The translations under genes were made by a program, and so were the position numbers. Shown piece by piece: positions 19,731 to 24,224 of a stretch of 64,000 nucleotides of DNA. Each line of letters begins with the position of its first letter. Within the stretch, counting starts at the first letter, position 1. Source of the DNA: Cytophagales bacterium (GTDB lineage: Bacteria > Bacteroidota > Bacteroidia > Cytophagales > Spirosomataceae); the NCBI GenBank assembly GCA_013298125.1, contig JAAFJP010000033.1:152-64151 (forward strand), in the 5' to 3' direction. A model generated the notes under the pieces. That model was not told the origin of the DNA. It ran no database searches and worked only from the letters and a program-made list of their open reading frames with translations.

Positions 19731-20102
19731 TTATTCATTTGTTTGATATTTTTCTTTTACAAAATTGATAAATTCTTCTACCATTTGTAGGGCTTTATCA
19801 ACTTCTTCTTTACCTATTTCTTCTTCGGGTTCATAATCGGCGTTTTATCTTTCTCTAAATAAGTACCCTAAATATTCACCATAATCCAAGGGTATTTCCT
19901 GTGTTTTGATAAATACTCGACCAAACTCACTGTTTAGTCCTTTATGAGTTTTTGCAACAATTCCCTTTGTAGTTAAAATTCCTTTTGCTAAATAATAATA
20001 TGCGTAATAACATCGGTTCATAGCTCCCCTATATCGTTCATTCTTAGCATCGTCAAAAGTATCTAAGGCTAAATCAAGGCTATTTTTAATGTCTTCATTC
20101 AT
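19731..20102 (-). pseudogene. HEPN-domain toxin gene with an in-frame TAA inside the conserved R..ADY motif
   Basis: ORF 19845-20102 ends ...GYLFRER-TAA. The same frame continues as NADYEPEEEIGKEEVDKALQMVEEFINFVKEKYQTNE to TAA at 19731 (hand translation). Together this gives a 123-codon HEPN-sized protein. Confidence 0.7.
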
Positions 20103-20421
20103 AAACAGTTATTCCTTCTTTTTTAATAAAACGATAAAAAGCCTTTGTGGCGAGTTCATATTTTTTCTGAGAAGCGGCAGACATTGAAACTTCAATATTA
20201 TTTTTTAGCGTGAGATGATATAATAACTTGTAGGTATTTAATAATTCCTTACTCGTTCTTACCTCTTCATCATTCAACAACACCAAAAAATCTATATCTG
20301 ATTCTTCGTTAAAATCTCCACGGGCGTATGAACCGTAGAGAATTATCTTCGACAGGCGGTCTCCATAATGGTTTTTCATGGTTTCCGTAAAATCTTTTAT
20401 GACAAGTGCTTTATCGACCAT
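20095..20421 (-). CDS. Minimal nucleotidyltransferase (MNT) partner of HEPN
   Basis: GS...D.D motif (LYGSYARGDFNEESDIDFLVL). It overlaps the HEPN start by 8 nt. Confidence 0.8.
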   Translation of the reverse strand: MVDKALVIKDFTETMKNHYGDRLSKIILYGSYARGDFNEESDIDFLVLLNDEEVRTSKELLNTYKLLYHLTLKNNIEVSMSAASQKKYELATKAFYRFIKKEGITVYE

Positions 20422-20537
20422 CGTGTTAAGATTTAGTTTCTATCACAAAACTAATAAATTATGATGGAAAGAGAGGGTTTTCGTTTTAAAATGCGTGTAA
20501 AGAGGATAAAAGTTACAGAAGATTTCATAAAATTACC

Positions 20538-20545
20538 TACATTTG
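20538..20545 (+). promoter_or_regulatory. Possible -7 box TAcaTTTG for the sulfatase gene
   Basis: tacatttg lies 20 nt upstream of ATG 20566. No clean -33 TTTG was seen. Confidence 0.3.
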
Positions 20546-20565
20546 AAACTAAAATCATCGTTAAA

Positions 20566-22323
20566 ATGAACCTGACAATACTTAAAATAGTCTTTTTACT
20601 TTTCTTTTTACTAATAGATACGGAAGTCATTTTCGCCCAAACAAAACAACCCAATGTCATCATTTTATTAAGTGACGACCAAGGTTGGGGTGATCTGAGC
20701 ATTAATGGCAATAAAAATCTCAACACGCCCAATATTGATAAATTGGCAAAAAATGGCGTTCAATTTGACCGTTTCTATGTACAACCCGTCTGTTCGCCTA
20801 CTCGTGCAGAGATGCTCACGGGGCGTTATGCTCCTCGATGTGGGGTTTATAGCACTTCGGAAGGTGGCGAGCGGATGAATTTAGATGAAATAACCTTGGC
20901 AGATGTCTTCAAAAAAGCGGGTTATGCCACGGGTGCTTTCGGGAAATGGCACAATGGTATGCAATATCCCTACCACCCAAACGCCAAAGGTTTTGAAGAA
21001 TTTTACGGTTTTTGTTCGGGACATTGGGGAGATTATTTCGATGCTCCAATGGAACATAATGGTAAAATTGTAAAGGGAAAAGGATTTATGACTGATGATT
21101 TGACCAACAGGGCAATGTCGTTCATGGAGAAGAATAAAAATCGTCCGTTTTTGTTATATGTGCCTTTCAATACACCTCATTCGCCCATGCAAGTGCCTGA
21201 TAAATGGTGGGCAAAATTCAAAGATAAACCCTTGGAAATGACCGCCAATGGCGAAGACCAAAACTTCACTCGGGCTACCTTGGCAATGTGTGAAAATTTA
21301 GATTGGAATGTGGGTAGAATCATGCAAAAATTGAAGCAATTGAATTTAGAAGAAAACACCATCGTCATTTATTTTAGTGACAATGGTCCCAATGCCATTC
21401 GTTGGAATGGAGGCATGAAAAGCACCAAAGGCTCAACCGATGAGGGGGGCGTTCGTTCGCCTTTGATTATGCAATTTCCGAAGGTCATTCAGGCAGGTTC
21501 AAAAATTACCCAAATCTCCGCAGCAATTGATTTACTGCCCACCTTGACGGATTTAGCGGGTATTAAACACGAATCTAAAAAGCCCTTAGACGGCATAAGT
21601 TTGAAGCCTTTATTGACCCAAAAATCACAATCGTGGAACGACAGATTATTGTTTTCGTATTGGAACGAAAAAGTGAGCGTTCGGACACAACAATATCGTT
21701 TAGACCATCAAAATAAACTTTACGATATGACCACTGACCCAGACCAAAAGGTTGATGTTTCGATGAATAATTTGGAGGTAACGAACAAACTAAAATTGGC
21801 AGTAAACGATTGGAAATCAGCGGTTTTGGTAGGTATTAAAAACGATGAGAGAGCATTTTCAGTAGGACACTTAGCTTTTAAATATACGCAATTACCCGCC
21901 AGAGATGCCAAGCTCGAAGGAGGCATAAAACGTTCAAGTAAACACCCAAATAGTAGCTTTTTTACGAACTGGAAAACAACAAATGATGCCATCGTGTGGG
22001 ATGTGGAAGTATTGGAAGAAGGAGATTTTGAGGCAGAAATTTATTATACTTGTTCACCCGAAAATGTAGGTTCTATTTTTCAATTATCCCTTAATAATCA
22101 ACAACTTACCTCAAAAGTCACCGAAGCCCACAACCCACCTTTGCGAGGCATGGAGAACGACAGATTTCCACGCATGGAGTCGTATGTGAAGGATTTTAAA
22201 CCAATAAAAATTGGTAGAATTCATCTAAATAAAGGCGTTGGAAAATTAACTTTGAAAGCCTTGGAAGTTAAGGGGGCAGAGGTGATGGATTTTAGGCTTT
22301 TGATGTTGGAGCGGGTGAAATGA
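20566..22323 (+). CDS. Arylsulfatase-family sulfatase with C-terminal beta-sandwich domain
   Basis: Signal peptide starts at ATG 20566 (MNLTILKIVFLLFFLLI...AQ). Formylglycine motif CSPTRAEMLTGR is present, with N-terminal SDDQGWGD metal ligands. Confidence 0.85.
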   Translation: MNLTILKIVFLLFFLLIDTEVIFAQTKQPNVIILLSDDQGWGDLSINGNKNLNTPNIDKLAKNGVQFDRFYVQPVCSPTRAEMLTGRYAPRCGVYSTSEGGERMNLDEITLADVFKKAGYATGAFGKWHNGMQYPYHPNAKGFEEFYGFCSGHWGDYFDAPMEHNGKIVKGKGFMTDDLTNRAMSFMEKNKNRPFLLYVPFNTPHSPMQVPDKWWAKFKDKPLEMTANGEDQNFTRATLAMCENLDWNVGRIMQKLKQLNLEENTIVIYFSDNGPNAIRWNGGMKSTKGSTDEGGVRSPLIMQFPKVIQAGSKITQISAAIDLLPTLTDLAGIKHESKKPLDGISLKPLLTQKSQSWNDRLLFSYWNEKVSVRTQQYRLDHQNKLYDMTTDPDQKVDVSMNNLEVTNKLKLAVNDWKSAVLVGIKNDERAFSVGHLAFKYTQLPARDAKLEGGIKRSSKHPNSSFFTNWKTTNDAIVWDVEVLEEGDFEAEIYYTCSPENVGSIFQLSLNNQQLTSKVTEAHNPPLRGMENDRFPRMESYVKDFKPIKIGRIHLNKGVGKLTLKALEVKGAEVMDFRLLMLERVK

Positions 22324-22428: not shown

Positions 22429-24000
22429 ATGCAATTAATCAACTACGTAAGAATAAGTAACTTTAAAGGTTTTGGTGAAAATGTGATTATTGATTTTAGC
22501 CAGCCTTCGGTATTGATTGGTCCGAATAATTCTGGTAAAACTACTGTTTTGCAAGCATTAGCCATGTGGAGTGTTGGGATTAAAACGTGGTTTAGGGAAA
22601 AAGGTACTGGGAAAAGTAAGAGTAAAATGGGTAAGAGTATAAACCGACTCAGTATTACACAAGTACCAATTAAGGAATCAAAATATTTTTGGCAGAATGC
22701 AAATGTACGTACTGGTACGGTAAATACAGAACTAAAAATTACGGTTGGGTTAGTATTTAAGGGTGAAATACAGGAATGCACTATGATTTTTACCTACTTT
22801 AATTCTGAGTCTATTTATTGTTTTCCAGAAGATACTTCCAAAAATATAGATGGGCTTTTGGAGTATGCAAGTAACCTTGAAATTAAAATTTTGTATCCAA
22901 TGTCAGGTATTGCTCGTGAAGAACCACTTATTCAAGAGGGACGAATAGATGTATTGGTTGGGCAAGGGCAAACGTCCGAAGTGTTAAGAAATATTTGCTA
23001 TAAAATTGTTGAAAATGATGAAAAAAATCATACTGATGATTGGAAGTTAGTAACAAATTTGATGAAAAAACTTTTCAATATTACCCTTGTGAAACCATAT
23101 TTTAATATGACACAGGGAACTGTTGAATTATCATATCAAACTGATGAAATAAAGAGTAAAAAAGGAAGTTTAGATATTGGTCTCAGTGGACGTGGACAAC
23201 AAGAAATGCTTTTGCTAATTTCTTACTTATATACCCACAAAGGAGCAATATTGTTATTAGATGAGCCTGACGCACACCTTGAAATTTTGAGACAAAAGCA
23301 GGTTTTTAGTGTTTTAAAACATCTTGCAGAAGAAAATGGGAATCAGATTATTATTGCAACTCACTCAGAGGTCATTTTGAATGAAGCTGCTGATAATAAT
23401 TTAATGTTACTTCTTGATAGAGAGGCAATTAATCTTTCAGATTCATCTAAAAAAACCATAAAATCTGCCTTAAAAGATTACGGTTTAGAGCATTATTATA
23501 AAGCAAAAGTTTGTAAATCAATACTTTACATTGAAGGTAATACAGATATTGAAATGTTGAGAGCATTTGCTTTAAAATTAAAACACCTTGCCATTAATTT
23601 ATTGGACGATAAACTTTATTCTTACTATGTAGCTGATAATGAATCCTCGAATTCATTAGAAAACGATATTAATATTGCTTCTGGGTATTATAAAAGTGCC
23701 AAAAATCACTTTCAAGCTATCCAAAAATGTGTATCTGATTTTAAAGGAATTGGTATTTTTGATAATGATAATAGAATGGATGAGTTAAGACCCGAATTAG
23801 CTCTACTTTATTGGCGAAAATATGAATTAGAAAATTACTTTGCTTTACCTTATATAGTTGAAGATTATGTAGCTAAATATTTTGAAAATCATGGTAAAAC
23901 TGAAATTGAATTAGGACCTATTAGAGACGTTACGGTAGAAGCTATTAATCAAGCAATTTTAACAGAATTTTTAAACTCAAATCAAGAAGCTATAAAATGA
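22429..24000 (+). CDS. ABC-type ATPase (AAA_15/21-like) fused to a DUF4435/Toprim-like domain; PARIS(AriA-AriB)/OLD-like candidate defence protein
   Basis: The N-terminal pattern is that of SMC/RecF-like ATPases (VRISNFKGF...). Walker A is GPNNSGKT, the signature-like motif is LSGRGQQE, Walker B is ILLLDEPDAHL and the H-loop is ATHS. The C-terminal third has ILYIEGNTDIEML (Toprim Glu) and GIGIFDNDNR (DxD). Confidence 0.65.
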   Translation: MQLINYVRISNFKGFGENVIIDFSQPSVLIGPNNSGKTTVLQALAMWSVGIKTWFREKGTGKSKSKMGKSINRLSITQVPIKESKYFWQNANVRTGTVNTELKITVGLVFKGEIQECTMIFTYFNSESIYCFPEDTSKNIDGLLEYASNLEIKILYPMSGIAREEPLIQEGRIDVLVGQGQTSEVLRNICYKIVENDEKNHTDDWKLVTNLMKKLFNITLVKPYFNMTQGTVELSYQTDEIKSKKGSLDIGLSGRGQQEMLLLISYLYTHKGAILLLDEPDAHLEILRQKQVFSVLKHLAEENGNQIIIATHSEVILNEAADNNLMLLLDREAINLSDSSKKTIKSALKDYGLEHYYKAKVCKSILYIEGNTDIEMLRAFALKLKHLAINLLDDKLYSYYVADNESSNSLENDINIASGYYKSAKNHFQAIQKCVSDFKGIGIFDNDNRMDELRPELALLYWRKYELENYFALPYIVEDYVAKYFENHGKTEIELGPIRDVTVEAINQAILTEFLNSNQEAIK

Positions 24001-24224
24001 CAACTGGTGAATTACAAAAAGAGTTATTCAAAAATACTATTCTCATTAATAGAAAGGCGAGTCAATTTTTAGATGTCTGCTTTAAAAATATTTCCGAAAA
24101 GTTTAACTTGCCTTTAATGCTCAATAAAGGCAATTATTATGAATTAATATCTTTTATTAATCAAAAAGATATTGAACCAGAAATTAAAGAAAAACTGGAT
24201 TATTTAGTTCAATATTTATCTTAA
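23997..24224 (+). CDS. 75-aa ORF translationally coupled (ATGA overlap) to the ATPase-Toprim gene
   Basis: ORF only. It could be a genuine small partner or the frameshifted C-terminus of the upstream protein. Confidence 0.4.
   Translation: MTTGELQKELFKNTILINRKASQFLDVCFKNISEKFNLPLMLNKGNYYELISFINQKDIEPEIKEKLDYLVQYLS

Follow-up and report, generated by a model that had tools for sequence, protein, structure and literature searches.

Does the interval 22429-24224 of this DNA encode a fusion protein with a small partner, or does it hold a single gene that has been broken? The stretch analysed here, which we call the window, comprises 64,000 nucleotides (nt) of a Cytophagales bacterium (assembly GCA_013298125.1, contig JAAFJP010000033.1, positions 152-64,151), and all coordinates below are positions in this window. 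The interval contains two overlapping open reading frames (ORFs), which a preliminary description, made from the sequence alone, had presented as a compact 523-amino-acid (aa) fusion of an ABC ATPase with a DUF4435/Toprim module, related to PARIS and more distantly to OLD nucleases, followed by a coupled 75-aa ORF. We found that both frames belong to one gene. Taken as a whole, the reading that we consider likely is that this gene of about 600 aa joins an ABC ATPase to a remote AriB-type Toprim domain, that it belongs to a PARIS/OLD-like family, and that the copy in the window is broken by a 10-nt deletion.

One gene interrupted by a 10-nt deletion

The argument starts from two reading frames and two deletions:

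22429..24000, + strand: ORF1, 523 aa; the first 523 codons of the disrupted gene, comprising the ATPase and most of the Toprim/helical domain, with a TGA end created by the frameshift
23997..24224, + strand: 75-aa ORF; out-of-frame C-terminal tail, equivalent to residues 527-602 of intact orthologs and to the last four helices
23990..23991, + strand: 10-nt frameshifting deletion; window CAAGAAGC directly followed by TATAAAATG, orthologs CAAGAGGCATTGAGAAGTTATGAAATG
23768..23769, + strand: in-frame 6-nt deletion directly after the DxD motif, changing FDNDNANR to FDNDNR; alignment with five orthologs

The two ORFs, the ATGA in which the start codon of the second overlaps the stop codon of the first, and every motif quoted in the preliminary description are present at the positions and residues assigned to them there. 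The gene is real: its closest homologs match with an expectation value (E) of 0 at 85-89% identity, and hundreds more follow at greater distance. Nearly all of the best 120 homologs are 595-605 aa long, and the nearest ones (87-89% identity) measure 602-603 aa. When three orthologs were aligned to the window by tblastn, ORF1 shared its frame with their residues 1-526 and the small ORF with their residues 526-603 (79-87% identity); the 75-aa ORF by itself is 85-87% identical to the ortholog tails (residues 527-602). Thus, 22429-24224 is one gene, the intact product of which has about 600 aa (~602) and not 523.

The position of the break was located by nucleotide alignment with five intact copies of the gene at ortholog loci (L001-L005), which are 84-85% identical to the window gene. 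This alignment shows three gaps in the window gene, one of which, of 3 nt, is common to some of the orthologs; the other two are the deletions listed above. Since 10 nt are missing after position 23990 relative to all five intact orthologs, the small ORF is a frameshifted tail. The ends of the 10-nt deletion resemble a short direct repeat (GAAGC / GAAGT), and the 6-nt deletion is bounded by direct repeats of the TAATG type. Placement of both deletions between short direct repeats is a signature of replication slippage and not of homopolymer miscalls.

Could the 75-aa ORF be a genuine small partner of a 523-aa ATPase-Toprim protein instead, as had been proposed in the form of a third component? 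We give this explanation virtually no chance. The ATGA overlap is the single point in its favour, whereas homologs run through the region as one continuous protein, the ORF corresponds to their residues 527-602 at the identity given above, it matches no Pfam or PADLOC family, and no small conserved gene recurs downstream across 80 family loci. In the homologs compared, the 75-aa region is always fused and never a separate gene. The third component was therefore rejected, and the other option that had been put forward, a frameshifted tail, was confirmed by the ortholog lengths, the tblastn frames and the 10-nt gap. The compactness of the fusion, which had been remarked upon as well, holds in part: the length of 523 aa is an artefact of truncation, while the true length of ~602 aa is still below the 694 positions of the AriAB profile.

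The structural model leads to the same assignment. We built an AlphaFold (AF2) model on the intact ortholog P0002 (predicted local distance difference test score, pLDDT, 83) and modelled the C-terminal domain additionally alone. In it, the tail forms the last four helices (AF2 helices 532-601) of a confidently modelled bundle.

The ATPase head and the C-terminal domain

What does the intact protein consist of? The domains and motifs are as follows, with residue conservation taken from a 52-member family alignment:

22429..23418, + strand: ABC-type ATPase head, aa 1-330; AAA_15/AAA_21/SMC_N in Pfam, and Foldseek on the full-length model
residues 8-15, + strand: RISNFKGF, located in the 523-aa translation
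22519..22542, + strand: Walker A GPNNSGKT, aa 31-38; family-invariant
23182..23205, + strand: ABC signature-like LSGRGQQE, aa 252-259; G254, R255 and G256 invariant
23251..23280, + strand: Walker B and D-loop LLLDEPDAHL, aa 275-284; family-conserved
23356..23367, + strand: H-loop ATHS, aa 310-313; family-conserved
23521..23547, + strand: Toprim strand 1 ILYIEGNTD, aa 365-373, with predicted catalytic E369/D373; aligned with AriB FEGDDD and P2 Old VEGKTE
23758..23772, + strand: Toprim strand 3 DxD, FDNDN, aa 444-448 (D445, D447); aligned with AriB VDQD
23821..23841, + strand: YELENYF, with E, N and Y invariant; aligned with Y(S/A)IEN of AriB/DUF4435
24048..24149, + strand: tail invariants NRKASQF (K547, S549) and LNKGNYYELI (K571), ortholog numbering; family alignment

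Residues G31, P32, N33, N34, G36, K37, T38, G254, R255, G256, E279, P280, D281, A282, H283, L284, H312, E369, D445, E470, N471 and Y472 are invariant or nearly so among the 52 members. The quoted motifs thus fall on invariant columns of the family and are not chance matches.

Residues 1-330 are an ABC-type ATPase head of the AAA_15/AAA_21 kind. Pfam AAA_15 (3.6e-21, 76.7 bits, cut-off 32.1) and AAA_21 (3.6e-20, 73.7 bits, cut-off 27) match above their cut-offs, which bears out the ABC ATPase first described for the N-terminus; SMC_N follows at 1e-12. In PADLOC, the top match to the ATPase is AriA (9e-23), aa 4-316 being aligned to profile positions 3-372 of 373, and the further best matches are NsnB, MAD3, AriAB, Old and many GajA and PtuA profiles, all of them driven by the ATPase; no PADLOC model covers the whole protein. 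Searches with the full-length P0002 model by Foldseek returned PtuA, GajA, Thermus scotoductus OLD (TsOLD), retron-Eco8 and SMC heads at ~1e-11, a result that is dominated by the ATPase head and therefore uninformative for the C-terminus. The AF2 monomer shows a short insertion in the ATPase (helices 170-216), a helical hairpin without a long coiled coil.

The C-terminal domain, modelled alone with a pLDDT of 91.8 and a predicted template modelling score (pTM) of 0.88, consists of a beta-alpha-beta-alpha-alpha-beta-beta core and, after it, seven helices. An invariant Glu ends strand 1 and the DxD ends strand 3, which is the Toprim signature. Putative two-metal residues are E369-x3-D373, D445-x-D447 and E468/E470 in YELENY, each invariant or at least 90% conserved. 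In AriB, the acidic residues of the two-metal Toprim site are E26, D30, D88, E90 and E122 (PMC11464382). The spacings E369/D373 and D445/D447 equal those of E26/D30 and D88/E90, and the motifs align with FEGDDD, VDQD and IEN of O42 AriB.

Is this Toprim domain specifically of the AriB type? Two comparisons point in this direction. In the first, we aligned by hhalign a 125-member alignment of the family C-terminal domain with an 87-member alignment of PF14491 (AriB), built from two AriB sequences that Rousset et al. 2022 give in their supplement (PMC9122126). The null consisted of 150 column-permuted controls and the reversed profile. The score was 27.5 (E 0.005), which none of the 150 permuted controls reached (14.0 +/- 2.2, maximum 20.0) and which the reversed profile (15.1) did not approach. 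A greedy hhalign run placed all three motifs in one collinear alignment, LY(V/I)EGxTD with FVFEGDDD, (I)FDxD with FVDQD, and YE(L/I)ENY with YSIEN.

In the second comparison, 38 divergent C-terminal fragments of the family were scanned against Pfam (E <= 0.1) and PADLOC. The AriAB profile matches 20 of the 38, at up to 1e-19 and in more fragments than the approximately ten that retain any ATPase sequence. Stand-alone AriB matches nine, the best being the ATPase-free P0147 (1.8e-6, aa 83-216 on profile positions 46-183 of 236). The AriAB matches are collinear through the Toprim region, as in P0267 (aa 2-208 on 334-545 of 694, 7e-13) and P0209 (aa 8-215 on 354-559 of 694, 5e-11). At E < 0.05, ATPase-free fragments match nothing but AriB, AriAB, the Toprim part of one GajA profile and a stray PbeC (0.0025).

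Several results weigh against the AriB assignment. No Pfam model, PF14491 included, matches the C-terminal domain: the C-terminal 193 aa of the window protein, alone or with the tail (268 aa), gave no Pfam or PADLOC match at E <= 10, seven ortholog C-termini gave only noise in Pfam and no PF14491, and PF14491 is not among the families listed for the 38 divergent fragments at E <= 0.1. The C-terminal profile found no relevant solved structure among the chains of the PDB, although AriB is deposited there, and the single sequences P0147 and P0209 returned spurious PDB matches only, one of them to a TEV-site tag. Foldseek searches with the model of the C-terminal domain returned nothing in BFVD; in the PDB every match had E > 0.04, with AriB (8UX9) outside the top 50. 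Finally, the hhalign probability against AriB is low, at 7%, though the score exceeds the permuted controls.

The structural neighbours and the size of the protein raise an alternative: members of the family could be DNA nucleases of the class 1 OLD type, or housekeeping ATPase-nucleases for DNA repair, and not PARIS-like abortive-infection proteins that target transfer RNA (tRNA). The size and single-gene architecture of the family are those of class 1 OLD proteins, with no fixed partner (PMC10568477). Among PDB structures, the domain alone comes closest to the C-terminal regions of class 2 OLD proteins, which include the Toprim domain, followed by TsOLD and GajA; 6nk8_A (E 0.042, probability 0.92, template modelling scores 0.32/0.41) and 6njw (probability 0.82) lead the list, and no match is significant. 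The full-length family profile aligns with P2 Old at a probability of 84% and reaches the Glu strand of the Old Toprim domain. PF20469 (OLD-like_TOPRIM), which is carried by all 120 P2 Old relatives, is found neither in the window protein nor in orthologs close to it, and matches below threshold in P0175 (6e-4, aa 359-409, 20.7 bits, cut-off 23.2) and in three of the 38 fragments. DUF3226 is matched by three of the 38 as well.

Against this alternative, the C-terminal profile scores higher with AriB, at 27.5, than with 115 P2 Old C-terminal regions, at 22.5, a value that one of the 150 controls reaches; the ATPase part of Old, at 15.3, is null-like. The alignment of the C-terminal profile with P2 Old covers 22 columns and the Glu strand only (E 0.016); taken by itself, it would have spoken against homology. 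The ATPase-free fragments match AriB and AriAB, with the two exceptions named above, and the YxxENY motif is common to the family and AriB and not to Old. AriB itself matches the OLD Toprim domain weakly (HHpred E = 0.02 over ~60 aa) and also matches DUF3226 (Rousset et al. 2022, PMC9122126). A PARIS-type Toprim domain should thus match Old weakly, as observed here. We consider the OLD-type or housekeeping explanation unlikely.

From these profile comparisons we conclude that the C-terminal ~270 aa represent a putative remote AriB/DUF4435-type Toprim domain, nearer to AriB than to Old and outside the current boundaries of Pfam. The first assignment of an ATPase joined to DUF4435/Toprim therefore stands for Toprim and for remote AriB homology, by hhalign and by the PADLOC AriB and AriAB profiles, and fails for formal membership in PF14491, which no sequence reached; the rule of Rousset et al. 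for PARIS detection sets the DUF4435 cut-off at 27 bits (PMC9122126). Likewise, the expected structural resemblance was found for OLD, the C-terminal regions of which are the best Foldseek neighbours, at weak scores and with AriB 8UX9 outside the top 50. That OLD and GajA are more distant relatives than PARIS is borne out by hhalign and by the PADLOC matches of the fragments.

State of the gene in the window and its surroundings

Is the copy in the window still functional? Its main product stops at residue 523, and the last 75-80 residues are gone, including the invariant K547, S549 and K571. Judged from the sequence, the window copy is most likely a recently inactivated pseudogene. A second gene nearby also carries a lesion:

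20095..20421, - strand: MNT-type nucleotidyltransferase, intact; Pfam NTP_transf_2 2e-12, PADLOC PDC-S09 1.5e-31
19731..20102, - strand: HEPN gene in which a single TAA nonsense codon at 19845-19847 replaces CAA of the ortholog; ortholog comparison

The HEPN gene has no frameshift. The TAA falls within the R-x-x-A-D-Y region; beyond it the reading frame continues, conserved, through another 37 codons to its normal stop (19731). Two independent single lesions in neighbouring genes of toxin type, the ATPase-Toprim gene and the HEPN gene, suggest a real and recent inactivation.

Three observations speak against inactivation. The ratio of nonsynonymous to synonymous substitution rates (dN/dS) relative to the orthologs is 0.03-0.04 in the tail and 0.07-0.09 in the rest of the gene, i.e. 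the tail is without relaxed constraint. However, synonymous divergence is near saturation, so that the low value in the tail tells us no more than that the lesion arose recently, is spurious or is tolerated. Second, the deletion allele occurs in a single assembly (P0001, a cluster of one member from one contig). Third, a working protein might still be made, through the ATGA overlap or by a -1 slip on A_AAA_TGA.

The first two of these observations raise the possibility that the deletion is an artefact of assembly or sequencing and that the organism has an intact gene with a working protein of ~600 aa. On this explanation one would understand why the 523-aa product is seen on one contig only, why purifying selection on the tail is as strong as on the rest, and why the catalytic motifs of the window copy are all unbroken. 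It accounts poorly for the nature of the lesion: the 10-nt loss lies outside homopolymers and is bounded by short repeats, which is typical of slippage and not of base-calling errors, a second lesion of slippage type (the in-frame 6-nt deletion) is present in the same gene, and the independent nonsense codon in the HEPN gene fits a genuinely decaying patch. We regard an artefact as improbable.

Might the split gene instead be functional as it stands, either by translational coupling over the ATGA and reassembly of the two parts, or by a -1 slip that yields a protein shorter by about 3 aa? The stop codon of ORF1 and the start codon of the tail ORF overlap, and the junction reads ATA-AAA-TGA (23991-23999), so that a -1 slip of tRNA-Lys would give AAA-ATG-ACA, exactly the frame of the tail. 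In addition, constraint on the tail is not relaxed, and the tail is a separate set of helices in the model. Yet no other member of the family is split, nearly all being continuous at 595-605 aa; the ATG is not conserved, P0002 having KKI where the window has KMT; four A's are a weak slippery site; and the break lies inside a confidently modelled helical region. A functional split appears to us more doubtful still than an artefact. Low-level production of full-length protein through a -1 slip at 23991-23999 is conceivable, if speculative.

The pseudogene thus remains our preferred explanation. The preliminary description had ranked the locus as the best candidate defence module of the window. 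As the copy is probably inactive, its candidacy as a functioning defence module of this genome is weak.

The oddities that had drawn attention to the locus, namely the coupled small ORF and the fusion of 523 aa, are products of the 10-nt deletion. What had also been noticed, an accessory patch beside a decayed HEPN/MNT pair, is accurate: the HEPN gene is stopped by one TAA, the MNT gene is intact, and the content of the site varies. The locus is thus a decaying accessory patch with two neighbouring genes of defence or toxin type, each disrupted by one lesion. Two further genes flank the ATPase gene:

20461-22323, + strand: sulfatase gene between the MNT and ATPase genes; Pfam Sulfatase 1e-59; absent from this position in L001-L005
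24278-25453, + strand: 391-aa ORF without a Pfam match, immediately downstream; kept in the close relatives L001-L004

The 391-aa ORF resembles a core gene. The nearest relatives carry the family gene at this site too, flanked by cysS and the 391-aa gene. HEPN/MNT is present there in L001-L003 and absent from L004 and L005, where a SLFN_AlbA_2/HATPase_c_4/Fic-like_C gene lies just downstream of the intact family gene (L004 6258-7814, L005 2679-4235). The interval from cysS to the 391-aa gene behaves as a small variable hotspot. The fraction of guanine and cytosine (GC) is 0.30 in the family gene (28.7% over 23001-24000), compared with 0.40-0.42 in cysS and the 391-aa gene and 36.9% in the window, which is consistent with horizontally acquired DNA.

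The family, its relatives and a possible role

How widespread is this architecture, and in which company does it occur? The family comprises at least 721 representative clusters at 50% identity, collected by an exhaustive hidden Markov model (HMM) search with the C-terminal profile (414 at E <= 1e-10), in nearly all of which the domain lies at residues ~330-590 of proteins of 550-600 aa, and at least 497 loci in species-representative genomes. It spans Bacteroidota, Planctomycetota, Acidobacteriota, Verrucomicrobiota, Pseudomonadota, Chloroflexota, Spirochaetota and other phyla, plus one metagenome-assembled genome (MAG) of Bathyarchaeota. The public names of its members are generic ATPase labels only ('AAA family ATPase', 'predicted ATPase').

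We clustered all ORFs of 80 family loci and scanned the 122 directly flanking ORFs against Pfam. No conserved partner gene emerged: no neighbour cluster recurs in more than 9 of the 80 loci, and the largest one is an antisense-ORF artefact of high-GC genomes. The flanking ORFs matched 141 Pfam families, the most frequent of which are ResIII (5), Methylase_S (4), AAA_21 (3), and MmeI, HSDR_N, PIN, Uma2 and SLFN_AlbA_2 (2 each). Genes of type I restriction-modification (R-M) systems were mapped with the EcoKI proteins and an HsdR-like cluster over 72-80 loci, and were found nearby in ~13 of them, about one in six. In L022 (4691-14745) the operon reads hsdM-hsdS-gene-...-hsdR on one strand, and in L045 (6956-15309) and L073 (1298-10289) hsdS-gene-...-hsdR, again on one strand. 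In L020 and L069, hsdS lies directly upstream of the family gene, and in L035, L070, L075, L085, L088 and L089 an HsdR-like gene is directly adjacent. Neighbours on other contigs include TIR-PPR, BrnT, AAA_14/DUF4143, a cytosine methylase with NspV, and PIN.

The TIR-PPR protein is an unusual bacterial fusion of TIR_2 with many PPR repeats, of ~1060-1095 aa, encoded directly upstream of the family gene in L007 (3631-6822) and L009 (1883-5170). L007 is a MAG in which the family protein is named Candidatus Aminicenantes by NCBI.

Is there a fixed housekeeping synteny, which the preliminary description had named as a possible refutation? We found none: the neighbours already differ in the nearest Cytophagales genome (smpB), and the context is variable and enriched for R-M and toxin genes. 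This enrichment, together with the varying position of the gene between genomes, argues against a housekeeping role and thus also against the OLD-type or housekeeping alternative. On the other side, about five sixths of the loci have no R-M gene nearby, and ordinary-looking contexts occur, such as murB and a glycosyltransferase in L006; such metabolic neighbours, present at many loci, weigh against a role in defence and for that alternative. In the window and its close relatives, no type I R-M system lies next to the family gene.

Among known systems, which is closest? Within the OLD-like ATPase-Toprim superfamily, the family is a large clade without a name of its own, and its gene stands alone. 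It is of a kind already known, with fused AriAB as its closest representative. In PARIS, a hexamer of AriA sequesters AriB until Ocr or Ptr causes its release, whereupon an AriB dimer cleaves tRNA-Lys, tRNA-Thr and tRNA-Asn (PMC11464382, PMC12409363). Fused AriAB, a class 4 OLD-like protein, likewise has an AAA_15/AAA_21 ABC ATPase and a Toprim domain in a single polypeptide. AriA is the top PADLOC match of the family ATPase, the AriAB and AriB profiles match the C-terminal regions of divergent members, and the EGxxD, DxD and (Y)xxEN(Y) motifs are collinear by hhalign. PARIS guards against anti-restriction (PMC12707154), and a minority of the family is embedded in type I R-M loci, both being contexts of defence type. 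There are differences as well. The family gives no Pfam DUF4435 match at any threshold tried, and the AriAB profile matches the window protein partially (3.2e-17, 60.5 bits) in two stretches, the better of which aligns aa 256-384 with 313-452 of 694. The ATPase of the family has ~330 aa, whereas AriA is a protein of ~55 kDa (PMC11464382). The coiled coil and the IS1/IS2 insertions of AriA build a hexameric propeller (PMC11464382), whereas the model of the family protein has a short hairpin only. Finally, the effector of the family is tethered, so that it could not be released like free AriB.

Class 1 OLD proteins combine ATPase and Toprim in one chain and act as DNA nucleases (PMC7049728, PMC10568477, PMC12392090); P2 Old, Thermus scotoductus OLD, Vibrio cholerae OLD and E. 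coli YbjD are encoded by single genes of ~530-600 aa (PMC10568477, PMC7049728). The family shares with them the lack of an obligatory partner (80 loci) and the length (586 aa in P2 Old, ~602 here), and OLD C-terminal regions are its best, if weak, structural neighbours, the alignment with P2 Old reaching the Toprim Glu strand. In contrast, PF20469 is a feature of the Old relatives and gives four sub-threshold matches in the family, and the ENY motif and the C-terminal helical bundle of the family resemble AriB and not Old.

PrrC, an ATPase-nuclease embedded in hsd loci, is activated when restriction is inhibited (PMC12707154). The family proteins resemble PrrC and RloC in that one chain carries an ABC/SMC-like NTPase head and, C-terminal to it, a nuclease. 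The prrC gene lies in a type Ic R-M locus (PMC12707154). In L022, L045 and L073 the family gene, between hsdS and hsdR on one strand, occupies the slot that prrC has in EcoprrI, and in about ten further loci it neighbours hsdS or hsdR. The logic is likely the same, that of a suicide nuclease that backs up restriction. The predicted nuclease of the family differs, being Toprim-like and not a PrrC anticodon-nuclease domain; no model of PrrC/RloC type turned up in the Pfam, NCBIfam and PADLOC scans, and no R-M system lies beside the window gene.

GajA of Gabija, a class 2 OLD protein, is likewise an ATPase-Toprim protein, and many GajA profiles match at 1e-13 to 1e-16, some reaching residue ~385. 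Gabija was rejected as an identity for the locus, with no UvrD-like GajB downstream in the window, where the next gene is the 391-aa ORF, and none recurrent in the 80 loci.

How might such a protein act? By analogy with PARIS, OLD and PrrC, the ATPase head would dimerise or oligomerise and restrain the tethered nuclease. A cue derived from phage, possibly an anti-restriction protein or the loss of R-M activity, could then shift the state of the ATPase, and the unleashed Toprim nuclease would cut tRNA or DNA, leading to growth arrest and aborted infection. The analysis itself established which domains are present, that the catalytic residues are conserved, that the gene stands alone and that it is linked with R-M genes; trigger, substrate, oligomeric state and abortive outcome are proposed for the family by such analogy, and sequence cannot decide between tRNA and DNA as the substrate. 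Since the ATPase head is far smaller than AriA and the model shows it without a long coiled coil, a PARIS-type propeller with release of the effector is unlikely.

In summary, the locus holds a broken copy of a gene whose family is of more interest than the copy itself. The effector of this family lies outside Pfam DUF4435 and OLD-Toprim, and none of the PADLOC models spans the entire protein, so that the family may be missed or mislabelled by pipelines for defence annotation. We speculate that it could be a very widespread single-chain guardian of restriction, a compact PARIS-like protein recruited repeatedly into type I R-M operons at the slot of PrrC between hsdS and hsdR, and that it would sense anti-restriction proteins or the loss of R-M, cleave tRNA and be activated conformationally, with the split allele perhaps partly functional; this extended proposal is tentative, and we consider it possible rather than probable. 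A guardian role like that of PARIS and PrrC is suggested by the recurrence of the gene inside type I R-M operons. On this proposal a conformational change, and not release as from the AriA6:AriB3 propeller, would activate the tethered effector. A small head with a tethered nuclease would offer a simpler model for the gating of Toprim effectors by ABC ATPases.

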